Shown here one piece after another: positions 8,117 through 39,134 of a stretch of 49,262 nt of DNA (the first letter of the stretch is position 1; every line of letters starts with the position of its first letter). The stretch is from an uncultured Alphaproteobacteria bacterium (lineage in GTDB: Bacteria; Pseudomonadota; Alphaproteobacteria; CAIYWZ01). The translations under genes were made by a program, and so were the position numbers. The notes beneath the pieces were generated by a model. The model worked only from the letters and a program-made list of their open reading frames with translations, did no database searches and was not told where the DNA came from. The DNA lies in assembly GCA_903930075.1 (NCBI GenBank), contig CAIYWZ010000124.1:1-49262 (forward strand). Direction: 5' to 3'.

Positions 8117-8236
8117 AACTAAATCCTTTAAAAACTTTTTATCAATCTAACAAAATCGCCTTCTTCAGGCAAGGGAAATCGAGATATTGCGAAAGAGAGT
8201 TCATTTTGGTATACTCCAAGTTAATTAATTTATATT

Positions 8237-15700: not shown

Positions 15701-16300
15701 AAAACAAGCATGGGGCTGGGGATGTTCATAGGAAGAGGTTGAACTTGTGAGTTTTCCGGTTTTAAAATCAACATAATAGTGACCTTGGGAATGTCCTTCA
15801 ATACCGTAAGCCCAATGAAGACCTGTATTGAACCATTGTGGTGAATTTGGCGCGGCCATTTGGTGAATGAGCATATAGCGCATTTCATCAAAATAAGCCA
15901 AGGCATCTTCTTCGCCATCAAAGTATCCGCCTTTCCAACCCCAATAGGTCCAGGCTCCTGCCATACGATCAAAAACTTGTGTAGCAGATTGTTCACTTGA
16001 GGTTCTTTGGTTTTCAGGAAGTGATGCCAAAATATCCTCATCTGGGACTTGGCGTTGGAGCCAAACGGGGATTCCTTCTTCCTCAACTTTTTTTAAAGCC
16101 AAAGGAACACCGGCTTTGCGAAAATATTTTTGCGCAATAATGTCACAGGCAACGGAGGACCAGCTTGCGGGGACTTCTATATTTTCTAACCTAAAAACGA
16201 TGGATCCATCGGGATTTTTAATTTCTGAAGTTGCTCTTTGGAAGACAATATTTGAGTAAGGGGAACTATTAGTGGTGGTAAAACGACGTTGAATTTTCAT
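12752..16300 (-). CDS. nrdJ: Class II (adenosylcobalamin-dependent) ribonucleotide reductase
   Basis: Long alpha-type NrdJ with the conserved blocks NPCSEY, PTGTIG and SKTINMP, and a Cys-rich C-terminal tail ([28 protein letters not shown]). I chose the start at ATG 16300, preceded by AAAGAGG. Confidence 0.9.
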
Positions 16301-16545
16301 AAAAAACCTCTTTATATATTTAATTGATGTGTTTAATTTCAGGGTGACTTCTCTATGAATTAAACTACTCTTGTCCTCAAATTCTTTCAATAAAAATATT
16401 TACTTTTTTTTAAAAAAAAAGGTTGATTTTTTGAAGCACCCGGAAAATCTATTGCATTTAAATAAATTAAAATTAGGGGTTTCTTAACTTTTTTCTTTTA
16501 TATTCATAGTATTAACGAATTAAACGTAAAAGGAGTCGCTTCAAA

Positions 16546-23700: not shown

Positions 23701-23875
23701 TGCCCTTGGGCTCGGGGCAGGCGCGGAACTTCGTCAACCTTTAGGTGTTGCCGTTGCAGGGGGACTTATGGTTTCTCAAATTCTGACACTTTATATCACG
23801 CCAGTCATTTATATTTATCTAGATAAATTTTCTAGAAAAAAAGAGTATTTACAATATCAGGAGAAAGTCTCATGA
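20795..23875 (+). CDS. RND permease paralogue 2
   Basis: 1026 aa, colinear with paralogue 1 and carrying the same proton-relay motifs. Starts 2 nt after the stop of paralogue 1. Confidence 0.92.
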   Translation: MGFSSIFILRPIMTTLLMLSFIFAGALGYVFLPINSLPRIDFPTIQVSASFPGTSAETMSRTVALPLERAFSSIAGVDTMNSVSSQGTTQITLQFVLERDVDAAAQDVESAIAAAQKNLPTGMPTPPSYKKFNPSETPVIFVSVNSDTLPLFEIDKYCQTFIGDRISMLPGVAQVDIMGSQKYAVRIYANPQILALRNLTLTDISHAISSANVLSPSGLLNGELQASVVNPNSSLQTAKDFKEIIVSQINGVPLKLKDVADVQDSVENDRTAAWVNKRRSITLAVSRQPGSNTVEVTQSVRDMIPKLQEQLPKTLNIDILADRAESVRDSLRDIKYTFLLTMILVIGVIFIFLRSIWATLIPVMTLPIAIIGSFAFMYYLGYSLNNLTLLALTLSIGYIVDDAIVVLENISHHVENKMNPFDAAIKGSAEISFTVISMTLSLVAVFIPIIFMQGIVGRLFHEFSITISIVILMSCFISLTLTPMMARFFLSTEKERPFSFLVFFENYYKKLEIFYHSSLSWVMKRQRQTLYFFALLFCFNIFLFTQVNKGFFPTEDTGLIFGTFEATADTSFESMKKTAAKIYDILEKDKDVLNYNLSIGGSALSNAGRVFINLQPIGKRHKNIEEKLKDLRKAFFAIPELRVFLQPVASLRVGGLSSKSQYQYTFQGSDLDPLYAYTQLFEKELKKIPGFLDVTTDLQLNVLNANITIDRDRASTLGVPIKNITNILGSAYGDSQISTIFTDQDSYQVILDASKNQSRILQDISNLFVKNDQGGLVRLDSIAKFERGNSSLTVNHFNELPSTTVSFNLDKAVSLGEAVKKIEDLEINLKRPQTITGAFQGTTQAFKAMQTQELALILGAIVTIYIILGMLYESYVHPLTILSSLPTAGIGALLALMVTGMNFDIISLIGLIMLIGIVKKNAIMMIDYALVEERLHHKSPEDAIIEAAHRRFRPIMMTTFAAIMGILPIALGLGAGAELRQPLGVAVAGGLMVSQILTLYITPVIYIYLDKFSRKKEYLQYQEKVS

Positions 23876-26800
23876 ACTTTTCAAGCATTTTCATCTTTCG
23901 TCCAATTATGACAACTTTATTGATGATTTCGTTTCTTTTTGCAGGGGGCCTTGGTTATTATCTTTTGCCCGTCAATTCTCTTCCTAAAATGGATTTCCCA
24001 ACGATTCAAGTGACGGTGAGTTTTCCTGGGACTTCTGCTCAGACGATGTCGCGAACAATTGCGCTTCCTTTAGAACGCTCGTTTGCGTCCATTGCAGGGA
24101 TTGAGTCAATGAATTCCATGAGCAGCCAGGGAACAACCACAATAACCCTTCAGTTTGTGCTGGATCGAAATATTGATGCGGCTGCGCAAGATGTGGGTTC
24201 GGCAATTGCGGCGGCGAAAAAAAAGCTTCCTGCGGGACTCCCAAATCCTCCGACATATCAAAAAATTAATCCTTCGGAAACGCCTATCATTTATCTGGCA
24301 CTGAGCTCTTCGACTTTGCTGCTTTCACAAATCGATATGTATGCCCAAACGTTTATTGGGGACAGAATCTCGATGCTGCCAGGGGTGGCTCAGGTGGATG
24401 TTCAGGGGAGTCAAAAATACGCCGTGCGGATTTATGCAAATCCCCAATTGCTTTCCATGCGACAATTGGCTTTAACGGATCTGTCAACGGCTGTGAGCAA
24501 TGCCAATATTTTGTCTCCTGCTGGGCTTCTGAATGGAAAAATTCAAGCAGAAGTTTTAAATCCCAATAGTGGCCTTTTAAATGCGCAGGATTTTAAAAAG
24601 GTGATTATTGCGCAAAAAAACGGCATGCCCCTGCGCCTTGAAGATGTGGCCGAGGTTGAAGACAGTATTGAAAATGATCGAACGATTGCCTGGTATAATA
24701 AAACACCAGCAATTATCGTGGCCATTAGCCGTCAGCCAGGGGCCAATACCATCGAAGTTTCAGACCAAATACATGAGATTTTACCTAAATTAAAAGCCCA
24801 GCTTCCTCAAACTCTAAATATTGATGTTCTTTCGGATCAGTCTCAATCCATCCGTGAGTCGATGCATGATGTGAAATATACATTTTTCCTGACGATGATT
24901 TTGGTTATTCTTGTGATTTTTGCATTTTTGCGTAATGTGCGTGCAACCTTGATTCCGAGCATTACGTTGCCCATTGCCATTATTGGCACGTTTGCGTTTA
25001 TGTATTATTTAAATTATAGCCTGAATAATTTGACGCTTTTGGCTTTGACCCTTGCCATTGGCTATATTGTGGATGATGCGATTGTGGTTCTTGAAAATAT
25101 TATGCATAAAATTGAAAATAAAATGTCCCCTTTAGATGCGGCGATTCAAGGGAGCAGCGAAATCTCATTTACGGTTTTGTCCATGACGTTGTCTTTGGTT
25201 GCCGTCTTTATTCCGATTATTTTCATGGAAGGAATCGTGGGGAGGCTTTTCCATGAATTTGCAATGACGATTACAATTGTGATTTTGATTTCCTGTTTTA
25301 TTTCTTTAACGCTCACGCCCATGATGGGGCGTTTTTTGAAAGCGGCCAAGGAAGAAGAGAAAGAATCATATCTGGAAAGTTTATATAAAAAGCTAGAAAC
25401 CGCTTATAAAAAATCTCTTGAGTTTGTGATGAAAAGACAAACACAGACCCTTTATTTTTTTGTTGCGCTCTTTTGTTTCAACATTTTCCTCTTTAACGTT
25501 GTGCATAAAGGATTTTTTCCAACGGAAGATACAAGCCTGATTTCAGGAACGTTTGAAGCAACGGCAGAAACTTCATTTGAATCCATGAAAAAAACCTCGC
25601 ACAGGATTTTAGATTTGATCGAAAAAGACTCAGATGTCCTGAATTTTAATATTTCAATTGGGGGGACATCTTTACCCAATCAGGGTAATATTGCCATTAC
25701 ATTAAAACCTTCAAATCAGAGAAGCAAAACAATCGATGAAAAAATACAAGATTTTAGAAAAAGTTTCTTGAGCGTTTCTGAAGCTCAAGTCTTTTTGCAG
25801 CCTGTTGCAAACCTTACCCTTGGGGGACTTGCGAGTAAAAGCCAATATCAATACACTCTTCAAGGATCGAATTTACAAGAATTATATGAATACACACAAA
25901 ATGTTGAACAAGCTTTAAAGAAAACCCCAGGATTCATAGACGTGACAACGGATTTGGAACTTAATGTCTTGAATGCCAATATCAACATCGACCGCGACCA
26001 TGCATCTCTTCTTTGTGTGCCGATGATCAATATTACAAATACCCTCGGAAGTGCGTTTGGGGATCTTCAAATCTCAACCATTTTTACCGACCATGACAGT
26101 TATAAAGTTATTTTGAATACCTCCAAAAACCAATCCCGTGACCCGCAAGACCTTTCAAAATTATTGGTAAAAAATACAAATGGTGATCTTGTGCGCTTAG
26201 ATGCATTTGCAAAGTTTGAACCTGGGAATTCAGTGCTTACGGTGAATCACTTTAATGAAATCCCCGCAACAACCGTTTCATTCAATTTAGATCAGGGAAC
26301 AAGCCTTGGGGAAGCCATTGAAAAAATTGAGAAGTTAGATGAGGGTGTTCCACGGCCCAAAAGCATAACTGCAGATTTTCAAGGGACAACGCAGGTTTTC
26401 AAAGCGATGCAGTCGGGGCAAATTTGGCTGATTTTAGCAGCTGTGCTTACGATTTATATGATTCTTGGTATGCTTTATGAAAGTTATATCCACCCTATCA
26501 CAATCCTTTCAAGTCTGCCCACGGCGGGTATTGGTGCTTTGCTTGCCTTGATTTTTACGGGGATGAATTTGGATGTGATCAGCTTGATTGGATTTATTAT
26601 GCTCATTGGAATTGTGAAGAAAAATGCGATTATGATGATCGATTATGCCCTTGTTGAAGAACGCACTCACAATAAAACGCCCGAAGTTGCCATCGTTGAA
26701 GCAGCTCATAGAAGGTTCCGCCCGATCATGATGACAACGTTTGCGGCGATCATGGGGATTCTTCCCATTACTTTTGGCCTTGGGGCAGGGGCAGAACTGC

Positions 26801-26928
26801 GGCAACCTCTGGGCGTTGCCGTTGCGGGCGGACTCCTTGTTTCTCAAGTTCTAACCCTTTATATTACGCCTGTGATTTATATTTATTTGGATAAATTATC
26901 GAAAAGGGTCAAGCACGCTTTTTCTTGA
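23872..26928 (+). CDS. RND permease paralogue 3
   Basis: 1018 aa, colinear with paralogues 1 and 2. ATGA start/stop overlap with paralogue 2. Same relay motifs. Confidence 0.92.
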   Translation: MNFSSIFIFRPIMTTLLMISFLFAGGLGYYLLPVNSLPKMDFPTIQVTVSFPGTSAQTMSRTIALPLERSFASIAGIESMNSMSSQGTTTITLQFVLDRNIDAAAQDVGSAIAAAKKKLPAGLPNPPTYQKINPSETPIIYLALSSSTLLLSQIDMYAQTFIGDRISMLPGVAQVDVQGSQKYAVRIYANPQLLSMRQLALTDLSTAVSNANILSPAGLLNGKIQAEVLNPNSGLLNAQDFKKVIIAQKNGMPLRLEDVAEVEDSIENDRTIAWYNKTPAIIVAISRQPGANTIEVSDQIHEILPKLKAQLPQTLNIDVLSDQSQSIRESMHDVKYTFFLTMILVILVIFAFLRNVRATLIPSITLPIAIIGTFAFMYYLNYSLNNLTLLALTLAIGYIVDDAIVVLENIMHKIENKMSPLDAAIQGSSEISFTVLSMTLSLVAVFIPIIFMEGIVGRLFHEFAMTITIVILISCFISLTLTPMMGRFLKAAKEEEKESYLESLYKKLETAYKKSLEFVMKRQTQTLYFFVALFCFNIFLFNVVHKGFFPTEDTSLISGTFEATAETSFESMKKTSHRILDLIEKDSDVLNFNISIGGTSLPNQGNIAITLKPSNQRSKTIDEKIQDFRKSFLSVSEAQVFLQPVANLTLGGLASKSQYQYTLQGSNLQELYEYTQNVEQALKKTPGFIDVTTDLELNVLNANINIDRDHASLLCVPMINITNTLGSAFGDLQISTIFTDHDSYKVILNTSKNQSRDPQDLSKLLVKNTNGDLVRLDAFAKFEPGNSVLTVNHFNEIPATTVSFNLDQGTSLGEAIEKIEKLDEGVPRPKSITADFQGTTQVFKAMQSGQIWLILAAVLTIYMILGMLYESYIHPITILSSLPTAGIGALLALIFTGMNLDVISLIGFIMLIGIVKKNAIMMIDYALVEERTHNKTPEVAIVEAAHRRFRPIMMTTFAAIMGILPITFGLGAGAELRQPLGVAVAGGLLVSQVLTLYITPVIYIYLDKLSKRVKHAFS

Positions 26929-27856: not shown

Positions 27857-28062
27857 TTACTTTTTTCTCGGTAGTAATTGAGCAGATAAACTCTCAAAGC
27901 ACTGGCAAGCCCTGTTTTTCTTTGGCCGTCGATTTGGCCTAAAAACTGAGGAAGGTTGAGTTTCTTTTCTTTAAGTATAGCGTCCACAGCATCCCAAAAC
28001 TCTTGTTCCAAGGCAATACTGGTTCTGTGTCCTGCAATTGATATAGATTTTTTAATCATCAT
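27853..28062 (-). CDS. Ribbon-helix-helix (RHH_4) domain protein
   Basis: SIAGHRTSIALEQEFWDAVDAI...LASALRVYLLNYY matches the alphaproteobacterial RHH_4 pattern. It has 4-nt overlaps with both neighbours. Confidence 0.65.
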   Translation of the reverse strand: MMIKKSISIAGHRTSIALEQEFWDAVDAILKEKKLNLPQFLGQIDGQRKTGLASALRVYLLNYYREKSK

Positions 28063-30704
28063 CCTAGTAACGACAAAGAGCGTTGCAATTTTTCAATTTT
28101 CGACTCTGTCCCTTTCGCTTTTTCTTGTGTTTCTTCTACGACCTCTTCAGGCGCATTTGCGATATAATCTGGATTATTCAGCTTTGCTTTAAATCCTGAA
28201 AATTCTTTTTCGAGTTTGCCAATTTCTTTAGAAAGCCTTTGTTTTTCAGCTTCAAAATCAATGACATCGGCTAAAATTAACGCAAAACGTACATCCCCAA
28301 CGACAAAGCTCGAGCATTGTTTTAAATCGATTGTGTCTTCTTCAAATGAAATTTCGCCGAGTCTGCCAAGTTTTTTGACTAAACTTTCAAAATTATTACA
28401 AATCATCCTTATATTTTCATTTGGTTGAATGATTTTTAAAGGAACTTCTTTAGATGCAGGAACATTGAGTTCGGAGCGCGCTGACCTAATGGAGGTGATA
28501 ATTTCAATTAGAGTTTGAATCTGACCAAGAGCCGTGTAATCAATATCTTGCGGGTTAAACGTTGGCCAAGGCGTTGTGATTAAAAGCTCGCCTGTCTTTT
28601 GCGACAAAGATTCGAAAAGTTCTTCGCAAATATGCGGAGTCACAGGGTTCATCACAATGTATACATTTTTTAAAATATACGCAATCATCGCCTTTGTTTC
28701 TTCTTGCGTTTCCAGAGTTCCTGTTTGCAAGAGAGGTTTTGTAAATTCAAGATACCAATCACAAAATGTTCCCCAAACAAACTGATATAAAAGATTTGCG
28801 ACTTCATTGAACCTAAAATCCACCATGGCCTTTTCTAACTTTTCATTCAAGAGAACAAATTCAGAAAAAATCCAGCGGTTTAAGGTGTGCTTAGCTTTGA
28901 GTGGATCAAATCCTTCAACCAACACGCATCCGCTCATTTGTGCGTAACGGGAGGCATTCCAAAGTTTTGTGATAAAGTTTCTAGAATTTTCCACTTTTGA
29001 AACGGAAATACGAATATCTCTTCCAGGAGCTGCTAAAAAGGCCAAAGTAAATCTTAAAGCATCAGCCCCATATTCATCGCATAAATTCAATGGATCTAAA
29101 ACATTTCCTTTGGTTTTAGACATTTTATGCCCTTTTTCATCGCGCACGAGGGCGTGAATATAAATCTTGGAAAAAGGGACTTCTTTCATAAAATGCATGC
29201 CCATCATCATCATCCGGGCAACCCAGAAGAAAATGATATCAAATCCTGTGACCAAAACAGAGGTGGGGTAATATTTGTCGAGTTCTTTTGTTTTTTCAGG
29301 CCAACCAAGGGTTGTAAAGGGCCAAAGGGCCGATGAAAACCAAGTATCGAGAACATCTGTCTCTTGAGTGAGGTCCACTTTTTGACCGTAATGTGCGAGT
29401 GCTTTATTTTCCGCTTCTTCTTGGCTGTTTTCAACAAATGTATGACCATCTGGGCCATACCAGGCAGGGATACGGTGACCCCACCAAATTTGCCGGGAGA
29501 CGCACCAGGGCCTGATATTACGAAGCCATTCAAAATATGTATTTTCCCAGTGTTTTGGGAAATAGGTCGTTTGTCCGTCCTCTACGGCTTTAAGTGCAGG
29601 TTTTGCAAGTGTTGCGGCGTCCACATACCATTGGTCTGTCAGTCTTGGTTCAAGAATCGCGCCGGAGCGATCTCCATGGGGAATACTATGGATGATATCC
29701 TCAACTTTTTCGAGCAGGCCTTGTTCTTCTAGGGCATGAATCACAGCTTTTCTTGCCATAAATCTGTCCATACCTTGAAAAGGGGAGGGGGCATTTTCGT
29801 TTAAGATTGCAAACTGGTCAATGACCGTGATGCGATCAAGATTATGCCGGGCGCCAACTTCAAAGTCGTTAAAATCGTGCGCTGGCGTGATTTTAACAGC
29901 CCCTGTTCCCTTTTCAGGATCGCAGTATGTATCTGCAATAATCGGGATAACGCGCGTTGTGAGCGGCAGAGAAATGGTTTGTCCAACAAGATCTTTATAC
30001 CGCGCGTCTTCTGGATGAACAGCAACGGCTGTATCGCCAAAAAGCGTTTCAGGACGGGTTGTTGCCACAGTTAAATATCCATTTCCATGCGTTAAGGGAT
30101 ATCGTATGTGATACATGTGACCTTTGAGTTCTTTTTCTTCTGTTTCCAAATCAGACACAGCTGTTTGCAAAACGGGATCCCAATTGACAAGCCGTTTATC
30201 TTTGTATGCAAGCCCTTGATGATAAAGATCCACAAAAACTTTTTTAACGGCATCGCTGATTTCAGGATCAAGGGTAAATTTTAATCTTGACCAATCGGGG
30301 GAAGATCCTAAACGTTTAAGTTGTTCGATAATCATGTCGCCGGAGTGGGCTTTCCACTCCCAGACTTTTTCAAGAAACTTTTCCCGGCCTAACTCAACTC
30401 TTGAAATATTTTGAGCGAGAAGTTGCTTTTCAACGATCATTTGCGTTGCAATTCCAGCATGATCTGTCCCTGGTTGCCAGAGAACATCATAACCTTTCAT
30501 TCTATGGTAACGGGCTAAAATATCTTGAAGGCTAAATGTGAGCGCATGTCCCAAATGCAATCTACCCGTGACATTGGGAGGCGGCATCGTGATGCAATAT
30601 TTAGGTTTATCAGAATCCGTTTCACAAGAGAATGCACCTGATTCTTCCCATTTTTGATAAAACTTGGCCTCAATCTCTTTTGGAGCGTAATTTTTGTCTA
30701 ACAT
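28059..30704 (-). CDS. valS: Valine--tRNA ligase
   Basis: HIGH-type motif PPPNVTGRLHLGHAL, KMSKS motif KMSKTKGN, C-terminal coiled coil. Confidence 0.97.
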   Translation of the reverse strand: MLDKNYAPKEIEAKFYQKWEESGAFSCETDSDKPKYCITMPPPNVTGRLHLGHALTFSLQDILARYHRMKGYDVLWQPGTDHAGIATQMIVEKQLLAQNISRVELGREKFLEKVWEWKAHSGDMIIEQLKRLGSSPDWSRLKFTLDPEISDAVKKVFVDLYHQGLAYKDKRLVNWDPVLQTAVSDLETEEKELKGHMYHIRYPLTHGNGYLTVATTRPETLFGDTAVAVHPEDARYKDLVGQTISLPLTTRVIPIIADTYCDPEKGTGAVKITPAHDFNDFEVGARHNLDRITVIDQFAILNENAPSPFQGMDRFMARKAVIHALEEQGLLEKVEDIIHSIPHGDRSGAILEPRLTDQWYVDAATLAKPALKAVEDGQTTYFPKHWENTYFEWLRNIRPWCVSRQIWWGHRIPAWYGPDGHTFVENSQEEAENKALAHYGQKVDLTQETDVLDTWFSSALWPFTTLGWPEKTKELDKYYPTSVLVTGFDIIFFWVARMMMMGMHFMKEVPFSKIYIHALVRDEKGHKMSKTKGNVLDPLNLCDEYGADALRFTLAFLAAPGRDIRISVSKVENSRNFITKLWNASRYAQMSGCVLVEGFDPLKAKHTLNRWIFSEFVLLNEKLEKAMVDFRFNEVANLLYQFVWGTFCDWYLEFTKPLLQTGTLETQEETKAMIAYILKNVYIVMNPVTPHICEELFESLSQKTGELLITTPWPTFNPQDIDYTALGQIQTLIEIITSIRSARSELNVPASKEVPLKIIQPNENIRMICNNFESLVKKLGRLGEISFEEDTIDLKQCSSFVVGDVRFALILADVIDFEAEKQRLSKEIGKLEKEFSGFKAKLNNPDYIANAPEEVVEETQEKAKGTESKIEKLQRSLSLLG

Positions 30705-30721
30705 TTGATTTTCCTAAATGT

Positions 30722-32152
30722 TCACGGTTCACGTAATTTTTGAAACATTTTCGTAACTTCTTGGGCAACAGTTTTTTCAACCAAGCTTGGTAAATACGCA
30801 TTGACCCAGTCTTTTAAAAGAGGCTGAATCAAATCGTAAATGAATGCCTGAAGCTGTGAGTTCTGATTTCCCATATCCAAAGATGGAATAGAAGGAGTCG
30901 GAATGATCGTCTCAGGTGTTTCTTTTTCTCCCGTGAGGGGAGAATTTTCTGGTATAACCTGCGCTATATTGTGAAGCGAAATGCTTGAAGCATTAAGAAG
31001 CGACGTTAAATTTTTTAAAGAGGATGGAGTGGTCAATGATTCTCCTGTTTCTTCTTTAGGTGTTTCTTTTTCTAGAACAGCCGTTTGTGGACTAATGTGC
31101 GTTGTATTCTGGGTAGAAATATTTGAAACCGCAGAAATTGACATTATATTTCCAAAAACGGGTGGAACCGCTGAGAATACTCTGGCTCCTTCTTTGGTAA
31201 ATCCATAAAGCGTTTCTTTAGTTGTTCCTGTTTCTGTAATAGGTGCCGTCTGTGAATGAACACGTGTTGCATCCCGCATAGAAATGTTTGGAACAGTCAG
31301 AAGTGACGTTACATTTCCAAAAACTGATGGAGCAGCGCAGAATTCTTCTATTCCTTCTTTGACTATTACTTTTTTTGCAATAAGTTCAGGATTTTCTGAA
31401 ACAACAGTCTGTGAACTCATGCGCGTTACGTTCTGGGTAGAAATACTTGGAGCAGGAGAAATTGATTTTACATTTCCAAAAACTGGTGGAGCCGCTGAGA
31501 ATTCTCCTGTTCCTTCTTTGGTCACACCATAGAGTGTTTCTTTTTCTGCAACAGGAGATGCATTTTCTAGAACAACCGTCTGTGGATTGATGCGCGTTAC
31601 ATTTTGAACAGAAATACTTGGCGCAATAGGAAGTGGCGTTATGTTTTCAAAAACTGATGGAGCAGCGGAGAATTCGCCTGCTTCTTCTTTGGTAAAACCA
31701 TAGGTTGTTTCTTTGGTTGCTTCTTGTTCTGCAACAGGGGAGGAATTTTCTGAAATAACCGTCTCTGGGATAACAGGGGTTATATTTCGAATGGGAATGC
31801 CTGACGCAGTGGGAAGTGATGTTACATTTCCAAAAACGGGTGGATTAGATGAGAATTCCCCTGTTCCTTCTTTCGTAAAGCCATAAAGTGTTTTTTTGGT
31901 TCCAGAGAGAAAAGGTTTTACAGGTTCTTGCTCACTCTCTACAGAAGGCTTACCCTCATGTTCGGGAACCGTTGATTGAGGTGCTGCTGGAAGTGGCGTT
32001 GGAAAAGGAATCGTATCATATCCCTCTTTTTGTGAAAAAGTATTCACCTCTTTTTTTTCTTCCACTTTTGTTTCTGCAGATATAATGCGGCGGATGGATG
32101 CTAAAATTTCATCCATCGACATATCATCATCAACCTTTTCTGGATGCGACAT
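30722..32152 (-). CDS. popZ: PopZ/DUF2497-family polar organising protein homologue with expanded repeat linker
   Basis: N-terminal MDEILASIRRIISAE and C-terminal LIQPLLKDWVNAYLPSLVEKTVAQEVTKM match my recollection of Caulobacter PopZ termini (MEEILASIRRIISED, LLRPLLKEWLDQNLPRIVETKVEEEV). Adjacent to valS. Confidence 0.75.
   Translation of the reverse strand: MSHPEKVDDDMSMDEILASIRRIISAETKVEEKKEVNTFSQKEGYDTIPFPTPLPAAPQSTVPEHEGKPSVESEQEPVKPFLSGTKKTLYGFTKEGTGEFSSNPPVFGNVTSLPTASGIPIRNITPVIPETVISENSSPVAEQEATKETTYGFTKEEAGEFSAAPSVFENITPLPIAPSISVQNVTRINPQTVVLENASPVAEKETLYGVTKEGTGEFSAAPPVFGNVKSISPAPSISTQNVTRMSSQTVVSENPELIAKKVIVKEGIEEFCAAPSVFGNVTSLLTVPNISMRDATRVHSQTAPITETGTTKETLYGFTKEGARVFSAVPPVFGNIMSISAVSNISTQNTTHISPQTAVLEKETPKEETGESLTTPSSLKNLTSLLNASSISLHNIAQVIPENSPLTGEKETPETIIPTPSIPSLDMGNQNSQLQAFIYDLIQPLLKDWVNAYLPSLVEKTVAQEVTKMFQKLREP
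30920..31891 (-). repeat. About six tandem ~54-codon (~160-nt) degenerate coding repeats inside popZ
   Basis: Repeating unit TLYGFTKEGTGEFSAAPPVFGNVTSL..APSIS.QNVTR..PQTVV.EN, seen at about residues 88-411. The antisense ORFs in the track repeat as well. Confidence 0.85.
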
Positions 32153-32169
32153 CGTAAGCTCTCTTTCTT

Positions 32170-32493
32170 TTATTTCAGTGCTGTTTCAACCCATTCTTTA
32201 AGCTTGGCTTTAGGCATAAATCCTTGCTTTGTGGAGACAACTTCTCCATTTTTAATCAACAGAAGTGTTGGAATACTTCTGACTCCAAATTCATTTGGCG
32301 TATGCGCGTTCTCATCAACATTCATCTTGGCAATCTTGAGGGTCCCTGTCATTTCTAAGGCAAGTTCTTCCAAAACAGGCTCAATCATTTTACATGGGCC
32401 ACACCAAGATGCCCAAAAATCGAGCAAAACAGGAACGTTAGATTCTAAAACTTCCTTTGAAAAAGTATCATCTGTAACAATTGTTGCGTTCAT
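32170..32493 (-). CDS. trxA: Thioredoxin
   Basis: WASWCGPCKM active site, 107 aa. Confidence 0.95.
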   Translation of the reverse strand: MNATIVTDDTFSKEVLESNVPVLLDFWASWCGPCKMIEPVLEELALEMTGTLKIAKMNVDENAHTPNEFGVRSIPTLLLIKNGEVVSTKQGFMPKAKLKEWVETALK

Positions 32494-32600
32494 TTATCTT
32501 CATCTCTTTCTATCTTCTTAAATTCTGATTACGAATAATTGCATATTTGGATTGTTTGCGTCAAGCAAAAATCTGGGAAGATACATTTTTTACCTCATTT

Positions 32601-33965
32601 TTACAACATCAAGGACTCTTTGATATGAATTGCTTCTAAAAAATCTTCATCGTGAGACACAACAATCATGGCACCTGGATAAACGATAAGAATTTCAATA
32701 ATATGTTTTTTGGTTTCAAGATCTAAATTATTGGTAATTTCGTCTAAAATCAGAAGTTTTGGCGTTTTTGAGGCAATCAGAGCCAAAGAAAGCCTTGCTT
32801 TCTCTCCGCCTGAGAGGTTTTGAACCTTTGTCATCACTTCTTCATTGCTGCGAAATAAAAAATCATTCAGATGTTTTCGCAAATCCACATGAGACCAGCT
32901 TGGTACGCATTCTTCTAAATTTTCAAGAACTGTTTTAAGTGGATTTAATGTTGAATAATGCTGATCAAGAAATCCGATATCATAAGCGTTAATAACGTTC
33001 CAATCTCCCGTTATTTTTACAGATTTGTCGCCTAAAATCGCCTTGAGAAATGTGGATTTTCCCGATCCATTCTTTCCTTTAATCGCAATACGCTGCCTTG
33101 AAGAACAAGAAAAATGGATATCTTTGAGTAGATTCTCATCATATCCTGCGCTGCCATTGGTCACGCAAACCAGCATTTTTTCTCCCATATTTTGGGAAGG
33201 GATCACAAATTTGGGTGTAATAATTTCAGGCAACCTAAAATTTTGCAATGTTTCATCAATTTTATTTTTCAAGATATTGACCTCACCACGCTTTTTCCCA
33301 GAGGTTGCAGAACCTTTTTCCTTCATGGCGCCTTTAAGCTTGCGATCATTTTCGTCTTTATTGGCTTTTTTACTCGAGGATGCCCGTTTTTGTTCAAACT
33401 CAAGGGCGGCTCTTGCTTTTTTCTGAGCTTTTGAGAGCAATTCCAATTGAGCAATTTGAGAAGTTCTGCAAGATTCGAATTCGCGCATATAATCATCATA
33501 ATTTCCGGAAAAAATTTCTATTTTCCCTTGATCAATATGCCAAAGTTTAGAGATAGATTTGCGCAATAACTGCGTATCATGTGACGCCACAATTAAGGTT
33601 CCCTTAAACCTATCCAAAACCTTAAAAAGAGCGCTACGATTTTTGACATCGAGATGATTTGTGGGCTCATCGAGCAATAAAACAGAAGGATCGCTTGCCA
33701 GTGCTTTGGTTAAGGCCTTTTGAAAACGTTCGCCACCACTGCAGTTCCCGGCGTCTTCTACAATTTGAGGAACACTTCCAAAGGCTATATTTTGATCCAA
33801 CAGAAGTTTTTCAAGAATTTTTAAAAGGCTTGATTTTCCAGATCCATTGCGCCCAATAATGCTAATTTTTTCCCCATAAAAAAACTCTGATGAGAAATTC
33901 TCGAAGCAGGTTTTTTGAGGAAATGAGAGAGAAATATTTTGAATAGAAAAAATACGATACGACAT
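32601..33965 (-). CDS. ABC-F-type ATPase (two NBDs, no TM domain), short form
   Basis: Walker A GRNGSGKS and GKNGSGKS, signatures SGGERF and LSGGEKARL, Walker B LLLDEPTNHLD and LILDEITNNLD. A Lys/Arg-rich interdomain linker. Confidence 0.75.
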   Translation of the reverse strand: MSYRIFSIQNISLSFPQKTCFENFSSEFFYGEKISIIGRNGSGKSSLLKILEKLLLDQNIAFGSVPQIVEDAGNCSGGERFQKALTKALASDPSVLLLDEPTNHLDVKNRSALFKVLDRFKGTLIVASHDTQLLRKSISKLWHIDQGKIEIFSGNYDDYMREFESCRTSQIAQLELLSKAQKKARAALEFEQKRASSSKKANKDENDRKLKGAMKEKGSATSGKKRGEVNILKNKIDETLQNFRLPEIITPKFVIPSQNMGEKMLVCVTNGSAGYDENLLKDIHFSCSSRQRIAIKGKNGSGKSTFLKAILGDKSVKITGDWNVINAYDIGFLDQHYSTLNPLKTVLENLEECVPSWSHVDLRKHLNDFLFRSNEEVMTKVQNLSGGEKARLSLALIASKTPKLLILDEITNNLDLETKKHIIEILIVYPGAMIVVSHDEDFLEAIHIKESLML

Positions 33966-34104
33966 AAAATAACTCCTTAAAAAAATGATAATTTCAATAT
34001 TTTAAAAAAGTTATTTCTTCATGTCGCATAGACTCCTGTTTGTTTAATTTCAAGATTAAATTTATCAAATTTTTCTTAAAAGTCAAGAATATTTTTGTTG
34101 TGAG

Positions 34105-34560
34105 CTACATTTGAGGGGGAATAGCCAGTAACCTTGTAATATTAGGAGGCGCATTATGTCTTTGCGCAGTTTGCAAGGGCGTGTGTCCATCACTATTCGT
34201 GCGCGTTAAATCCGCATGAAATTCACGCAAAATACGAATAATTGCTTCGTCTTCACTATTGGCAGCAACATGCAAAGCGGTCCATGAATTTGCCCCTGGG
34301 TTATTGATATCTGCACCGCGCTCGAGCAAAGTTCTCACTGTCATGCGATTGCCCAGCATAGCTGCATAGGTCAAAGGAGTATATTGGTGGGAAACCGAGC
34401 CGATATTTGCGTTGATTTGATTGATGTCAAAGCCAGGCTCTGAAATTTTTGCAAGAACCTCTACTTTATTTTCGCTATAACCAAAGACAAAAAATGGGTT
34501 ACCTGAGGCATGGGAAAGGGTTGAAAAAAAATATTGAAAAAAGAATAAAAAATAGTTTCA
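34105..34560 (-). pseudogene. Secreted ankyrin-repeat protein gene interrupted by a frameshift in a T8 (A8 on +) tract
   Basis: ATG at 34560 gives MKLFFILFSIFFF..., which stops after 20 codons. Removing one base from the homopolymer at 34524-34531 yields MKLFFILFSIFFSTLSHA|SGNPFF...TPLTYAAMLGN..., continuous with the listed 89-aa ankyrin ORF. Confidence 0.7.
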
Positions 34561-34670
34561 TAATTGTGTTTTCCTTGTAATAAGTTGATATCCAAATGAA
34601 CTCTCGCACAGATTTCATGAAAAAGTCAATAAAATAAAATAAATTATTTCGCCTTTTTGGAGAATGATGA

Positions 34671-36107
34671 TTACGCGTGTTTTAAGAAGTTTTCAATATC
34701 GATAATTTTGTAAAAATAACGTGAATCAACAATATCTGGCTTTACACCGCTGATGTGTAGTAACACTGGAAGTACGGCTGTTCTGAGGGGGAAGGAGATG
34801 CGATTTAATTTTTCTTCCATTTCATCGATAATATCCATTTTGATCTCGCGGTTTCTAAACTTGAATTCGCAGGCAAAAATCCGGTAACTATACTCTTGAA
34901 TGAGATAATCAATTTGACATCCTTTGTGTTTTGGAGAAGCTTTTTGAGTGTAGGGGTTGCTAAAGGCAATATCAGCAGGTGAAATATCTAGTTCCTCTAC
35001 AATCAGATGGCTGTTTTCAATCAGAAGCGCTTCCATGGCAAGCCCGATGATGCTGTCAAATCCAGGGACGTTGATTTTTGACCCACGCATTGCTTTTTTG
35101 CTTTCAATTTCCCCTCTGCGCGGTTCTATAAATCTCAAATAAAAACGTATATAGGAATCGGATAATCCGTAAAGTTTTTGCGTTGTTTCTTTTTTTGTTT
35201 TTAAAGACCATTGGTTGTGTTTTCTGATAAATCCGCAAATGACCAAATTATCAATTTTTTCTTTGAGATCTTTAACAGGAAGTTCTTTAAACTCATTTTT
35301 AATTTGATCAAAGGTTTTCATCTCGTTTGCTAAAATTTCCATAATTTTCTTATGAGAGGGGCCGTCTCCATTGAAAAGATCATGAAAAATCATATCGAAT
35401 TCAGAAACAAGTAACCCATTTTTTTCAAAACATAGACGTTTAATATTGGCTTCTGCTGTAAAATCCGGGTCTATTTGTTCTAAATAAAAGGGGATTCCGC
35501 CCGTGATACAAAGAATGCGATAAATGTCGTGTGCTTCTCCTCTGAATCCTTTCTTTTTTAAAAATTTTGCGCAGTCTGGCAAAGAAAGAGGTTCCATCAC
35601 CATTCTTAAAGATATTCTTCCCAAAAATGCTTTACTTTTTATGATATTTTTTTCAACCCAGGTTGAAATAGTTCCAGAAAAAACTAACATCAAGTTTTTT
35701 CTTTTAGACAGATGCTGATCCCACCATATCTTGAATTTTGGGATAAATTTAGGATCTTTTGAGGCCATCCATGAGATTTCATCAAATAGAATCACTGTCG
35801 GCTCATCGGTCAACTGATCTAGAAAATAATGAAAAACATCGCTCCAGTCTGAAAAAAATTGTAGAGGTTTTTTGATGTGTTGCGCGAGTTGTCTGCAAAA
35901 TTCGTCACGTTCATCTTGCGCGGTTATGCCTTCAATAGGAGCTGCTCCTGAAAAGTTTAAGAAACGTTTGCCTTTTGCAAATTCTTCAACCAAACGGCTT
36001 TTCCCAATCCTTCTTCGACCTTTGATGACGGTGATTGTTGCATCACCTCTTTTGAAGAGCTGATTTAAAAGATCGAGTTCTTGCTCTCTTCCAATGAATT
36101 CTTGCAT
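34671..36107 (-). CDS. Orphan P-loop ATPase (archaeal-ATPase/DUF234-like) with C-terminal PD-(D/E)xK-like motif
   Basis: Walker A GRRRIGKSRL, Walker B VILFDEISW, C-terminal QIDYL...FACEFKF. Confidence 0.55.
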   Translation of the reverse strand: MQEFIGREQELDLLNQLFKRGDATITVIKGRRRIGKSRLVEEFAKGKRFLNFSGAAPIEGITAQDERDEFCRQLAQHIKKPLQFFSDWSDVFHYFLDQLTDEPTVILFDEISWMASKDPKFIPKFKIWWDQHLSKRKNLMLVFSGTISTWVEKNIIKSKAFLGRISLRMVMEPLSLPDCAKFLKKKGFRGEAHDIYRILCITGGIPFYLEQIDPDFTAEANIKRLCFEKNGLLVSEFDMIFHDLFNGDGPSHKKIMEILANEMKTFDQIKNEFKELPVKDLKEKIDNLVICGFIRKHNQWSLKTKKETTQKLYGLSDSYIRFYLRFIEPRRGEIESKKAMRGSKINVPGFDSIIGLAMEALLIENSHLIVEELDISPADIAFSNPYTQKASPKHKGCQIDYLIQEYSYRIFACEFKFRNREIKMDIIDEMEEKLNRISFPLRTAVLPVLLHISGVKPDIVDSRYFYKIIDIENFLKHA

Positions 36108-36168
36108 ATTTATTTAAGCCTTTATTGATATATAAAAAGCATCATATCTTTTTAGCTGTATTTTTTCA

Positions 36169-36184
36169 ACACACTTTGTTTTCT
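36169..36184. repeat. Left copy of 16-bp target-site duplication ACACACTTTGTTTTCT
   Basis: Identical 16-mer at 37854..37869, immediately outside the IS inverted repeats. Confidence 0.8.
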
Positions 36185-37853
36185 TGTAGGAGCAATTTAG
36201 GAATGTCCTATTGTGCAATTTAAGAATGTCCGTTTTAAGAGAGGATAAAGATAATCGGGATATCCTGTGAGAAACAACTCACATTGAAGGATAGAAGAGA
36301 TGTCTGAGATTATATTAAGAGGGAAAGAATTGGATAGATTATTGATCATGAACCGTGTAAAGAATAAAGATTTAACGATGAAAGAAGCAGGCATATTGCT
36401 TGGTCTTTCGTGTCGTCAGGTGGGACGTCTTAAGAAGCGGATTGAAAGTATGGGGAACGAAGGGGTACATTCCCTGAACAAGGGTGGGAATAGGCGTATC
36501 AAAGAAGAGTTGAGGGTATCGGTTGTAGAGATTCTTAAAAATCCACTTTATGAAGGATTTGGCCCGACCTTGATGAGTGAGTATTTAAAAGAAAAAGAAG
36601 GGATTCGCTTAAGCCGTGAGAAGGTACGCCAAATGATGATGGAAGAAGGTTTGTGGAAAGGACGTGCGCGTCGTAAAGCCCGGATTCACCAGAGTCGAGA
36701 ACGTCGTCCTCGTTTTGGTGAGCTGGTGCAGATAGATGGGTCTTATCATCGTTGGTTTGAAGACCGGGGAACTGGGTGTTGTTTACTGGTGGCCGTAGAT
36801 GACGCGACAAGCAAGATCATCGGCCTTCGATTTTGTGAATCAGAAACAACGCTTGATTATATGGCTCTGGTAAAAGAACATCTTGAGAGATTTGGACGCC
36901 CGATAACTTATTATTGCGACCGGCACAGTATCTTTAAAACCACCCGCCAGAACAGCGCTGATGGACGTGTTCAAGACACACAGTTTAAAAGAGCTCTGGG
37001 TGAGCTTGGAATTGAGCTGATTTGCGCCAATTCTCCCCAGGCCAAAGGTAGAGTTGAAAGGGCCAATCAAACGTTACAAGATCGTTTAATTAAGTGGATG
37101 CGTATTCAAAAGATTGTGACAATGGAAGAGGCCAATAAATGTGTGGATTTGTTCATTCAAGACTATAATGGGAAATTTGGTGTTGTCCCTGAGAAAGCAT
37201 TTGATGCACATCGCCCTTTGAATTGCAGCGGGGAATCGTTAGAGAATAGTTTAAGCATTCAAACAAGCCGAAAATTGAGCAAGAATCTAGAATTTTCTTT
37301 TGAGAATCAAATTTATCAAATTCAAACGAAGACAAAAGGATATCGTTTGAGACAAAAGAATTTAAAGGTCTGTGGGTGTATGGATGGAGGAGTGAAAGTT
37401 TTTGATCAGAATGAGCTTCTTGCGTATAAAGTCATTGAAAAATCCTCTAAAACGCTTGTTGTTGATTATAAAAATATTAATTGTGTTGTGGATGGATTTG
37501 TCCAAGATTCTCACCTGAAAGAAGTTTCCGGTTGAATTGGGGCTTTGCCCCAAACCCCAAGGTATTTATCGATCAAAAAATGTGGGGATTGGTTCAGTGT
37601 TTCTTAATCTCTTTGGGATAGGCTTGTCTTTGCAATACAGGCAGAGGTGCCGATGGTTGCATCAAGAAATGAAAAAAGCAAGGCTATCACTGCTTTGCTT
37701 TTTTTTACACAAAACTCATTGACACAATCCATCCCTTAACGCTATTTTACCTTGAATGAAAACTTGAAAAATCAAGACATCTACATCTTGACGTTCAACA
37801 AAAAACGGACATTCTTAAATTGCAGAAACCAGACATTCCTAATTTGCACTAAC
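36185..37853 (+). mobile_element. ISNCY-family insertion sequence (~1.67 kb)
   Basis: Imperfect ~45-bp terminal inverted repeats: left ..GCAATTTAGGAATGTCC..GCAATTTAAGAATGTCCGTTTT, right AAAACGGACATTCTTAAATTGC..GGACATTCCTAATTTGC. One DDE transposase ORF. Flanked by a 16-bp direct repeat. Confidence 0.85.
36300..37535 (+). CDS. ISNCY-family DDE transposase
   Basis: N-terminal HTH (EAGILLGLSCRQVGRLKKR). rve-type core D (QIDGSYH), D (YYCDRHS), E (KGRVERANQTLQDRL). Confidence 0.85.
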   Translation: MSEIILRGKELDRLLIMNRVKNKDLTMKEAGILLGLSCRQVGRLKKRIESMGNEGVHSLNKGGNRRIKEELRVSVVEILKNPLYEGFGPTLMSEYLKEKEGIRLSREKVRQMMMEEGLWKGRARRKARIHQSRERRPRFGELVQIDGSYHRWFEDRGTGCCLLVAVDDATSKIIGLRFCESETTLDYMALVKEHLERFGRPITYYCDRHSIFKTTRQNSADGRVQDTQFKRALGELGIELICANSPQAKGRVERANQTLQDRLIKWMRIQKIVTMEEANKCVDLFIQDYNGKFGVVPEKAFDAHRPLNCSGESLENSLSIQTSRKLSKNLEFSFENQIYQIQTKTKGYRLRQKNLKVCGCMDGGVKVFDQNELLAYKVIEKSSKTLVVDYKNINCVVDGFVQDSHLKEVSG

Positions 37854-39134
37854 ACACACTTTGTTTTCTCGTTTGACCCAGATGTATACAGGAATTCCGA
37901 TGATAAAGCCGCATAAAGAAAGAAGAACCATTTCCACAGATGCTGCCCACATGGCCCAGAGGATGAAGATGGTGCTCAAAAGGGCTAAACTCATTTCGAT
38001 CCAGCTTAACGGGCGTTCTTTTTTTGTGAGCTTGATGAAACTTAAAACGCACAGGAAATAGATCACAAAAATCAGGGTTAGGGATATTTCGATGATGGAT
38101 TGAAATTGTTTTCCGAGGTTTTCGTTGTGGGAGATGAAAATCAAAGACAATGTGCACAGGGAAGAAATCAGGATGCTGATATGCGGGGCATCAAAGCGGT
38201 TGAGTTTACCAAAAATCTTGGGGAATAATCCGTCTTTAACTGCGCTTAAGGGAATTTGTCCCACCACAAAAATCCATCCATGGAGGGCTCCGATCATGGA
38301 GATGATTGTGATGATTGAGATGGGAACTCCCCAATTTCCCCCAAAAATATGAGAGGCAATATCGGCATATGGGGCTTTTGAGTGCATCAAAACATCGCAA
38401 GGGATAATCCCGATTGTGGCTATAGTTCCTAAAATATAGACCGTCATGGCAATAAAAGTGCCTGTTAAAACGGCTCTTGGAATGGTTTTAGATGGATTAT
38501 CAACTTGTTCTCCAGGGACCGTTCCCGTTTCAAGACCGACAAATCCCCAAAGTGTGAGAAATGTAACCGTATTGAATGATTCCCAGAATTTAAAGCTGTC
38601 GGGACTGGTAATTTCAAAATGATCAATATTGATCCAAAAAAGACCAATCAAAGGTAGAAGAAGCAAGGGGATGATTTTAAAAATGGTGAGCAAAAGTTCA
38701 CCCTTAGCGGTGACGCTGACACTTAAAAGATTAAATGCCGTGAGCAAAGACAACACCAGAATTTGTAAGTGCATGCTATAGGCGTCATATCCTGCGGGAA
38801 GAAGGGGGAGCATGTACCCAACAATGCCAATGACAAGGGATAAATTGCTGATCCAGGCCATCATCCAATATCCCCAACAGGTTGCAAAACCCATTTTTTC
38901 CCCAAAAGCTTCCCTTACATACACGTAAGGTCCTCCGCTTAAGGGGAGTTTGCCAGAAAGCTTTGCAAAAATCATGGCCAGCATCACCGCGCCACAGGAT
39001 GCAGCAATCCATCCTAAAAGGCTGATGCCTTTAAAGGGGGCTAAATTTGCAGGGAGCATAAAGACGCCTGCTCCCACAAGGTTTCCAACAACTAAGGCGG
39101 TCAAAGACCAAAATCCGATTTTTTTCTGTGTCAT
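37839..39134 (-). CDS. APC-superfamily amino acid/polyamine antiporter (AdiC/PotE/ArcD-like)
   Basis: LTALVVGNLVGAGVFMLPANLA resembles the AdiC-type GSG/unwound TM1 motif. About 12 TM helices. The last 4 codons and the stop (37853..37839) are IS-derived. Confidence 0.8.
   Translation of the reverse strand: MTQKKIGFWSLTALVVGNLVGAGVFMLPANLAPFKGISLLGWIAASCGAVMLAMIFAKLSGKLPLSGGPYVYVREAFGEKMGFATCWGYWMMAWISNLSLVIGIVGYMLPLLPAGYDAYSMHLQILVLSLLTAFNLLSVSVTAKGELLLTIFKIIPLLLLPLIGLFWINIDHFEITSPDSFKFWESFNTVTFLTLWGFVGLETGTVPGEQVDNPSKTIPRAVLTGTFIAMTVYILGTIATIGIIPCDVLMHSKAPYADIASHIFGGNWGVPISIITIISMIGALHGWIFVVGQIPLSAVKDGLFPKIFGKLNRFDAPHISILISSLCTLSLIFISHNENLGKQFQSIIEISLTLIFVIYFLCVLSFIKLTKKERPLSWIEMSLALLSTIFILWAMWAASVEMVLLSLCGFIIGIPVYIWVKRENKVCVSAN
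37854..37869. repeat. Right copy of 16-bp target-site duplication
   Basis: Identical to 36169..36184. Confidence 0.8.

Follow-up and report, generated by a model that had tools for sequence, protein, structure and literature searches.

A tandem array of aromatic-motif units in the linker of a PopZ orthologue from an uncultured lake alphaproteobacterium

Known PopZ architecture and the place of the linker

Among bacterial condensate scaffolds, PopZ (polar organising protein Z) has received the most study, and it doubles as a tag in synthetic biology. In Caulobacter crescentus, its N-terminal helix (H1) serves as the client-binding helix, P146 and W151/L152 near the C-terminus are required for trimer and hexamer formation, and helix H2 is dispensable for hexamers and matters for higher-order assembly (PMC12999525). 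The length of about 177 aa given for this protein in an earlier note on the present DNA agrees with OD-deltaL6, which covers residues 102-171 plus six more (PMC12999525).

Experiments tie both the length and the charge of the PopZ linker to condensate material state and cell fitness. These two parameters were found to govern condensate fluidity, and in natural homologues a lower charge fraction goes with a longer linker (PMC9512792). Caulobacterales linkers contain acidic residues and Pro at fractions of 0.29 and 0.23, respectively, and because linker features differ between clades (PMC9512792), the acidic, proline-rich linker describes the Caulobacterales rather than the whole family. The engineered variant IDR-156 (Lasker et al. 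2022), in which two wild-type linkers were concatenated, showed a higher saturation concentration and a higher condensate mobility (PMC9512792).

Herein, a PopZ-like protein of 476 aa is described from the window (the whole 49,262-nucleotide stretch of DNA analysed), whose source is an uncultured freshwater (lake) alphaproteobacterium. Like Caulobacter PopZ, it has a three-part layout, with a linker joining H1 (SMxEILASIRRII) to a C-terminal helix that bears an RPLLKxW core, in which P444 and W449 correspond to P146 and W151, and in both organisms the gene adjoins valS. The linkers differ: that of the window PopZ spans about 401 aa as against 78 aa in Caulobacter, with a net charge per residue of -0.04 as against -0.28 and 10% Pro as against 23-29%; its acidic fraction is 0.11, and the acidic, proline-rich feature is thus absent. 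Unlike the Caulobacter linker, it is made of long tandem units and has no recognisable H2 at the sequence level. IDR-156 resembles the window PopZ in that the linker was lengthened by tandem duplication with H1 and the oligomerisation domain left unchanged. However, IDR-156 is artificial, doubles the entire acidic linker once and lowers Caulobacter fitness, whereas the window PopZ carries a natural six-fold amplification of a low-charge sub-segment with an aromatic motif.

PopZ identity of the locus

According to the list of open reading frames, the gene occupies 30722..32152 of the minus strand, running from an ATG at 32152 to a stop codon at 30722-30724. Its N-terminus, MSHPEKVDDDMSMDEIL, is common to the orthologues, so the ATG is taken as the right start codon. 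Pfam DUF2497 (PF10691) matches aa 427-470 with 36.8 bits (E 5.4e-9; profile positions 31-74 of 75), above the gathering cut-off of 27 bits. The NCBIfam model PopZ_fam (NF052660) matches both termini (E 1.7e-15) at 58.7 bits, under its whole-protein cut-off of 125 bits; this model of 167 positions includes the linker and H2, both of which are without a match in the window PopZ. Furthermore, a canonical PopZ profile built from 56 proteins, with clade members left out, spans the six proteins of the clade end to end (E 1e-27 to 1e-29), and its alignment to the window PopZ covers aa 1-474 (E 1e-21).

Both functional ends are recognisable in detail. The N-terminal helix H1 (aa 13-33, MDEILASIRRIIS..., 32054..32116, minus strand) is modelled by AlphaFold2 as a helix with pLDDT 84-90. 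The H1 motif SM(E/D)EILASIRRII is present as DDDMSMDEILASIRRII at aa 8-24 and aligns to the canonical profile; D9-I24 is invariant across four aligned clade sequences, and across 60 PopZ proteins little or no variation is seen at M13, E15, I16, L17, S19, I20 and R21. The C-terminal DUF2497, or H3H4 oligomerisation, helix with P444 and W449 (aa 427-474, 30731..30874, minus strand) is delimited by Pfam and by AlphaFold2, in which it forms a helix with pLDDT 87-97. Within it, P444, W449 and L454 are invariant in the same 60 proteins, and V450 occupies the position of Caulobacter L152.

The neighbourhood is conserved as well. The thioredoxin gene trxA (32170..32493, minus strand; Pfam Thioredoxin, 112 bits) ends 17 nt upstream of popZ, and valS, encoding valyl-tRNA synthetase (28059..30704, minus strand), follows 17 nt downstream. 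The trxA-popZ order recurs at the related loci L083, L084 and L086, where the whole order trxA-popZ-valS-RHH_4-Peptidase_S11 is identical to that in the window. More widely, a PopZ-like reading frame stands directly upstream of valS at 59 of the 72 alphaproteobacterial loci examined and in all clade relatives. In a pattern-based scan of GTDB species genomes, the best identity of the window ValS among 80 loci was 57%, and matches at this level came from Rhodospirillales-like and other alphaproteobacteria.

The gene is a positional orthologue of PopZ with both functional ends intact, as shown by the DUF2497 match, the trxA-popZ-valS synteny, the invariance of Pro and Trp in the core and the H1 motif. 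The earlier note had called it a PopZ homologue and had named a significant DUF2497/PopZ match at the termini as the point on which this call would stand or fall; the same lines of evidence bear it out.

No significant match to the H2 helix (the L.S..T......AF..L region) was obtained with a profile built from the H2 segment of 54 canonical PopZ proteins: the last repeat unit reached 3.3 bits, and in the clade orthologues the linkers scored 0 bits or below, all of them values that shuffled sequences also give. Because H2 is dispensable for Caulobacter hexamers, it is not a strict criterion for PopZ membership. Derivation of the unit from canonical H2, suggested by the resemblance of VFGNVTSL to AFGSLSS, was rejected: it received a probability of 0.05% in a profile-profile comparison against 56 canonical PopZ proteins, and unit 6 scored no better than shuffles with the H2-only profile.

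The repeat array and its origin

Between H1 and the array lies a pre-repeat linker (aa 36-85, 31898..32047, minus strand) of unique sequence, delimited by orthologue alignment, which is mildly acidic, contains 15% Pro and is 51% identical to the corresponding part of the orthologue P0002. The array itself (aa 86-413) consists of five clear tandem units and one degenerate unit of 46-62 aa each, all on the minus strand. When every unit was scored by a profile built without that unit, unit 1 (aa 86-147, 62 aa, KKTLYGFTKEGTGEFSSNPPVFGNV..., 31712..31897) obtained 88.2 bits, unit 2 (aa 148-204, 57 aa, 31541..31711) 87.3 bits, unit 3 (aa 205-260, 56 aa, 31373..31540) 92.6 bits, unit 4 (aa 261-312, 52 aa, 31217..31372) 50.9 bits and unit 5 (aa 313-367, 55 aa, 31052..31216) 76.6 bits. 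The degenerate unit 6 (aa 368-413, 46 aa, 30914..31051) obtained 19.5 bits, as compared with at most 8.9 bits in 1000 shuffles. Over all units, these leave-one-out scores ranged from 19.5 to 93 bits, and the best of 1000 shuffles stayed at or below 13 bits. The range of aa 88-411 (nt 30920-31891), the consensus and the count of about six units given in the earlier note were accurate.

Units 1-5 share 43-61% amino acid identity in pairwise comparison, and at the DNA level TRF recovered one period of 171 nt (79% matches) and another of 183 nt (75% matches). In a split-sequence Smith-Waterman comparison, the self-alignment score of the protein was 278 versus 43 in shuffles (z = 42), and z did not exceed 12 among 165 other PopZ-like proteins. 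The repeated segment comprises an aromatic motif particular to the clade, (K)ETLYGF(T/P)KEGxGEFSxxPPVFGN, and behind it a tail of some 30 residues in which Ser, Thr, Asn, Gln and Val abound. Units 1, 2 and 5 retain all four aromatic positions of the motif, and unit 3 has Val at one of them. In unit 4 the LYG start of the motif is gone; unit 6 has lost every aromatic residue, and AlphaFold2 places a helix there at aa 376-398 (pLDDT about 75).

The clade comprises six metagenomic sequences in all, namely the window PopZ and five relatives of 179-207 aa. Exactly one unit each is found in P0002 (207 aa), P0003 (188 aa) and P0109 (190 aa), with the motif KETLYGFxKEGxGEFSxxPPxFG, and these three orthologues with a full unit keep the same four aromatic positions; P0003 and P0109 have proline-rich sequence in place of the unit tail. 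In P0004 and P0108 (179 aa each), a YGF remnant alone is present. A profile of the unit gives the window PopZ 478 bits; one made from the single-copy units of the three orthologues alone detects five units in it, and unit 3 is the nearest of the six to the single P0002 unit (54% amino acid identity). By alignment, the window PopZ has about 270 additional residues, and its linker of about 401 aa compares with about 106-133 aa in the relatives.

The units are copies of a segment found once in three of the five relatives, and the pre-repeat linker is kept; the array therefore represents amplification, not replacement. Of the earlier description, in which the linker had been replaced by repeats, the presence of about six tandem units in the middle region stands, and the replacement does not, given that aa 36-85 are retained and align with the orthologues. 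In this lineage, a native piece of the linker, about 55 residues long, was multiplied in tandem from a single copy to six. Its timing can be placed in relative terms. P0002 is 65% identical to the window PopZ, with termini that are 80-86% identical (dS 0.75-0.79), and the ValS of the nearest known relative is about 88% identical to the window ValS. Synonymous divergence is 0.35-0.75 among the units and above 1.4 between each unit and the P0002 unit. The amplification postdates the split from this nearest relative and is old, with copies that have since diverged.

An exhaustive phmmer scan and a clade-profile search returned no six-unit array in any other lineage, and scans of JGI metagenomes with the window PopZ and the clade alignment found solely the known P0003 contig. 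The window PopZ is an unusual natural form of an otherwise known protein. With its relatives it forms a natural series (motif remnant, one unit, six units) with near-identical H1 and oligomerisation ends, and the conserved aromatic motif of the repeated piece contrasts with the acidic residues and prolines that PopZ linkers usually contain. Such a series could bear on motif-carrying linkers, on the trade-off between valency and spacer length, and on the evolutionary retuning of condensates.

Constraint on the units and possible roles

On balance, the array is probably best explained as that of a PopZ orthologue in which an aromatic linker segment has been amplified, altering both valency and spacer length. 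The protein would still self-assemble through H3H4 and recruit clients through H1. The number of intact aromatic motif copies per chain would have risen from one to four or five, and each motif could dock some partner or make weak cohesive aromatic contacts ("stickers"). In addition, a fourfold longer and almost uncharged spacer may affect both the spacing within the polar assembly and its material state.

Selection on the units was assessed from few codons and non-independent pairs, within which pooled dN/dS for units 1, 2, 3 and 5 came to 0.32 for the motif of 23 residues and to 0.58 for the tail. For unit 4 against the other units the ratio was about 0.85-1.1, and across units 4 and 6 it was about 0.85-1.5. 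The motif half thus bears the signature of purifying selection, and units 4 and 6 are decaying. Since the motif-half ratio of 0.32 was reached at a dS of about 0.5, at least four copies have been under purifying selection for long. Since units 4 and 6 lie near a ratio of 1 and have lost the motif partly or wholly, the six copies are not all maintained by selection.

The strongest alternative holds that the expansion was neutral, arising by slippage or unequal crossover in a tolerant linker and reaching fixation because drift is strong in small populations, with functionless copies that slowly decay and with total linker length alone mattering, if anything. The near-neutral ratios and motif loss in units 4 and 6, the weak constraint on the tail halves and the confinement of the array to one lineage all agree with this account. 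Other PopZ linkers carry repeats too, so the region appears to tolerate repeat expansion generally: in homologues such as Terasakiella L040 and L026, L063 and L068, linkers have also grown by internal repetition. There, however, the repeats are di- to octapeptide runs (EP, DA, poly-Pro, PEPEPEPM) in acidic, proline-rich sequence, with self-alignment z of at most 12, whereas the window PopZ has complex units of 46-62 residues with conserved aromatic positions and a z of 42. A neutral origin also sits poorly with the motif-half ratio in units 1, 2, 3 and 5, and with the retention of the four aromatic positions in units 1, 2 and 5 and in the three full-unit orthologues. It is a possible explanation, to be given roughly half the weight of the one preferred above, and if it is correct, the array still shows the extent of linker growth that PopZ tolerates.

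It is improbable that the units are folded repeat domains, such as small beta-rich packing modules, which would turn the central region from a flexible linker into a structured rod or a platform for binding. Composition lends this idea some credit: over aa 86-413, 22% of residues are Ile, Leu, Val or Met and 17% are charged, polar and beta-branched residues alternate in stretches such as SISVQNVTRINPQTVVLEN, and the repeats fall on the compact, ordered side of the charge-hydropathy boundary (0.479 vs 0.424), because of which the description as a disordered spacer is not secure. In the full-length AlphaFold2 model, on the other hand, units 1-5 stay below a pLDDT of 50 and lack secondary structure (the alignment depth being almost nil there), and one unit modelled alone from a nine-row alignment reached pLDDT 63 and pTM 0.15, again without secondary structure. 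The units contain no Pfam repeat family or domain and give no PDB sequence match below E 0.4. Their lengths vary from 46 to 62 aa, with indels, and the substitution of proline-rich sequence for the tail in P0003 and P0109 likewise speaks against a fold.

An assembly artefact behind the repeat count, or a reading frame other than PopZ, is very improbable: the data are all short-read metagenome assemblies and PopZ_fam stays under its whole-protein cut-off, but the NCBI, ENA and Logan assemblies agree on the 476-aa product, DNA identity between units amounts to just 63-76%, and DUF2497 above its cut-off, the N-terminal motif, the invariant core and the synteny concur. An independent Logan contig at 18x depth is identical over 30000-33000, with zero differences, and the identical product occurs on 4-5 contigs from the three sources. 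The longest exact repeat within the gene is 20 nt, and because the units share at most 20 identical bases, an assembler working with 31-mers traverses the array unambiguously. The artefact that had been named beforehand as a possible refutation is therefore set aside by the identity of independent assemblies. As these assemblies agree and the units are diverged and hence old, the array is neither artefactual nor currently unstable. The suggestion that its length could vary by recombination between repeats found no backing: a single 476-aa form is seen, the clade-profile search of 5.8 billion protein clusters revealed no other length variant, and exact repeats do not exceed 20 nt.

Within the preferred reading of an amplified aromatic segment, multivalent client binding or condensate tuning is plausible, in view of the conservation of the motif and the published effects of linker length. 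A more specific proposal, that the unit is a cohesive or docking module whose Tyr/Phe cluster (YGF...EF...VFG) either acts as a sticker or binds a polar client, is put forward tentatively and seems rather unlikely as it stands. If true, the PopZ linker would contribute multivalent attraction or client capture, with motif copies rising from one to about five. This would depart from the Caulobacter type, in which assembly, driven by the oligomerisation domain, is counteracted by the repulsion of an acidic linker, and would mean that nature had rebalanced condensate valency against linker length. The window PopZ fits the trend of longer linkers with lower charge, at its extreme; among 95 PopZ-like proteins, the correlation of linker length with charged fraction was weak and non-significant (rho -0.15, p 0.14).

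An analogy may be offered by "sticker-and-spacer" low-complexity domains and nucleoporin FG-repeat domains, in which Phe or Tyr recurs within polar spacers. The likeness is one of composition: aromatic residues are regularly placed (17 in aa 86-413), seven FG or GF dipeptides occur, and the spacers are low in charge (charged fraction 0.17) and rich in Ser, Thr, Asn and Gln (Ser+Thr 0.24). Unlike FG domains, to which it has no sequence homology, the array has a far lower motif density, and its spacers are richer in Val and Ile.

Identity of the gene and its repeat units

The 476-aa product of the gene placed by the ORF list at 30722-32152 (reverse strand) was taken for a PopZ homologue in the earlier note, a reading that is borne out here. 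Residues 427-470 score 36.8 bits against Pfam DUF2497 (cut-off 27). Both termini also match NCBIfam PopZ_fam (E 1.7e-15), at 58.7 bits, which lies below the whole-protein cut-off of 125. A canonical PopZ profile of 56 proteins, excluding members of this protein's clade, spans residues 1 to 474 (E 1e-21), and it matches five short relatives from the same clade at E 1e-27 to 1e-29. Across 60 aligned sequences, I20, P444, W449 and L454 never vary and the SM-EIL-SIR motif hardly does; QPLLKDWV, which contains P444 and W449, corresponds to Caulobacter RPLLKEWL, and P146, W151 and L152 of Caulobacter PopZ are needed for trimer and hexamer formation (PMC12999525). Furthermore, in 59 of the 72 alphaproteobacterial loci with enough upstream sequence, a PopZ-like ORF immediately precedes valS. 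In the window, trxA (thioredoxin; 32170-32493) ends 17 nt from popZ, which lies downstream of it, and valS (28059-30704) follows 17 nt downstream of popZ. Altogether, the DUF2497 and profile matches, the invariant residues and the position upstream of valS mark the gene as the positional orthologue of popZ.

Six tandem units of 62, 57, 56, 52, 55 and 46 aa, on a basic plan of a 23-residue aromatic motif and a tail, extend across residues 86-413. Units 1-5 share pairwise identities of 43-61% in protein and 63-76% in DNA, and TRF finds periodicities of 171 and 183 nt. Leave-one-out profiles found units 1-6 at 88, 87, 93, 51, 77 and 19.5 bits, against a best of at most 13 bits in 1000 shuffles, which upholds the original count of about six repeats. 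Self-alignment of the protein stood 42 SD above shuffles, the highest value in 165 other PopZ-like proteins being 12. The LYG start of the motif is missing from unit 4, unit 6 is devoid of aromatic residues, and a search of all reading frames of the window and of the loci of the relatives found no further copy of the unit. Pooling Nei-Gojobori counts for units 1, 2, 3 and 5 (six pairs) gave dN/dS of 0.32 for the motif and 0.58 for a 25-residue tail, and units 4 and 6, set against the other units, came out close to 1 or higher. With few codons and non-independent pairs behind them, these figures suggest that about four motif copies are maintained and two are decaying.

Origin, age and stability of the array

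Exhaustive phmmer screening of 1.84 billion representative proteins, together with a clade-profile search across 5.8 billion clusters, returned only five close relatives. P0002 (207 aa) carries one full unit in its linker, P0003 (188 aa) and P0109 (190 aa) carry one unit each, and P0004 and P0108 (both 179 aa) retain only a YGF remnant. The motif KETLYGFP(K/R)(N/E)GxG(D/E)FSxxPPxFG occurs exactly once in each of the three unit-bearing relatives, with the unit tail also recognisable in P0002, and a profile from these single units alone finds five units of the window protein. The termini of P0002 and the window protein are 80% (N-terminal) and 86% (C-terminal) identical, and the window protein aligns as an orthologue with ~270 extra linker residues. 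The order trxA-popZ-valS-RHH_4-Peptidase_S11 is common to the window and the loci of P0002, P0003 and P0004, the three relatives whose contigs were looked up, with ValS identities to the window of ~88-89%, 77% and 65%, respectively. Taken together, the single units and remnants, the tightly matching termini and the orthologue-unit profile matches indicate that the ancestral linker carried a single unit or its remnant, and that expansion to six units took place in the window lineage. The linker was therefore not "replaced" by repeats, as originally proposed; a native unit, present once in P0002, P0003 and P0109, has been amplified. The dS is 0.35-0.75 between units of the window protein, 0.75-0.79 between its termini and the orthologous ones of P0002, and >1.4 (saturated) between its units and the P0002 unit. 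These values place the amplification shortly after the separation of the window and P0002 lineages.

No exact DNA repeat within the gene is longer than 20 nt, so that short-read assemblers pass the array unambiguously. An independent Logan contig (18x depth) shows zero differences over 30000-33000, and 4-5 contigs drawn from NCBI, ENA and Logan encode the same 476-aa protein; the repeat count is not an assembly artefact. Homologous recombination requires a minimal homology length, and a longest repeat of 20 nt leaves little substrate for it between units. No other length variant was found among the 1.84 billion representative proteins, the 5.8 billion clusters and metagenome scans. The array is an old, stable one and not prone to recombination between repeats, contrary to the earlier proposal that its length could vary in this way.

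Linker properties and a possible effect on condensates

AlphaFold2 with a 60-row alignment predicted confident helices at residues 13-33 (H1, the N-terminal helix) and 427-474 (H3H4, the C-terminal oligomerisation helix), a helix of moderate confidence at 376-398 inside unit 6 (pLDDT ~75), and units 1-5 at pLDDT <50 and devoid of secondary structure. A single unit modelled with a nine-row alignment also lacked secondary structure (pLDDT 63, pTM 0.15). Owing to the minimal alignment depth in the repeat region, this modelling is weak evidence that the repeats are disordered; a charge-hydropathy plot places them on the compact side (0.479 vs a boundary of 0.424). The canonical H2 segment (L.S..T......AF..L) that precedes H3H4 is unrecognisable in residues 368-426 and in the five relatives. 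Residues 376-398 of the degenerate unit 6 are proline-free, and a helix, which might take the place of H2, is predicted there in the window protein alone of its clade.

The 401-aa linker (residues 26-426) has fractions of 0.11 acidic, 0.07 basic, 0.10 Pro, 0.23 Ser+Thr and 0.21 Ile/Leu/Val/Met residues, and a net charge per residue of -0.04. [quoted passage not shown] Other PopZ linkers grow by micro-repeats that preserve an acidic, proline-rich character, whereas the window linker has long units. Examples of such micro-repeats include EP runs in Terasakiella (L040, 5176-5892), PEPEPEPM octapeptides (L026, 5170-5895), DA dipeptides followed by EP runs (L063, 4641-5876) and poly-Pro (L068, 5256-5927); PopZ linker length may commonly evolve by repeat expansion. 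The microsatellite-like runs in these loci include ~30 EP and ~30 DA dipeptides. Long PopZ proteins are encoded at several loci (411-510 aa) and occur among the search matches (up to 425 aa); those inspected contain no long units, and a full-text literature search found no description of a natural PopZ with tandem repeats. On these grounds, the window PopZ is a previously undescribed form of a familiar protein rather than a novel type of system.

In Caulobacter, the PopZ linker sets condensate fluidity: halving it yields denser, less mobile condensates, doubling it raises saturation concentration and mobility, and longer linkers in natural homologues are said to be less charged (PMC9512792). 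The acidic Caulobacter linker restrains condensation through repulsion (PMC12999525). The window protein has kept both H1 and its oligomerisation core, and the sole change is a longer linker with more motif copies. By analogy, its near-neutral linker would provide much less electrostatic repulsion per residue and a far larger spacer, and the 17 aromatic residues of the array (8 in the P0002 linker) could give weak cohesive contacts or repeated docking sites. We infer both the motif's function and its effect on polar assembly.

Genomic surroundings

The DNA, from a lake-water metagenome (39% G+C), is alphaproteobacterial and encodes a two-piece (permuted) alpha-type tmRNA (1941-2300, reverse strand, 206 bits). 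Among 80 loci returned by a pattern-based scan of GTDB species genomes, the best ValS identity was 57%. In L083, the P0002 locus and closest relative, a permease gene lies next upstream of trxA, ~0.7 kb off. In the window, the interval from trxA to the amino-acid permease (37839-39134; 83% identical to that of L083) holds an extra ~5 kb (32601-37535), encoding a two-domain ABC ATPase (32601-33965), an 84-aa ankyrin protein (34105-34359), an ATPase_2/AAA_16 protein (34671-36107) and an HTH_32 protein (36300-37535); this block beside the popZ operon may be a mobile insertion. The L083 valS (6642-9239) is broken across three reading frames, with tblastn pieces covering residues 1-136, 143-782 and 797-881 and called genes of 144, 615 and 73 aa, reflecting either assembly frameshift errors or true disruption of an essential gene.

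Next to a HlyD-type membrane-fusion gene (16546-17721) come three ORFs of ~1020 aa in succession (17721-20792, 20795-23875 and 23872-26928). The first encodes an AcrB-family pump at full length (987 bits), and the gene that takes the place of the third in L083 is likewise ACR_tran. Three successive RND pumps are unusual. The window also encodes a class-3 lipase (327-1553), a 252-aa ankyrin-repeat protein (5026-5784) and a second, small ankyrin protein (34105-34359), and genes of these types are common among bacteria living with eukaryotic hosts. In addition, a 1212-aa class II (B12-dependent) ribonucleotide reductase with a TSCPD domain (12752-16390) has its barrel domain matched as two stretches, which could reflect an insertion.
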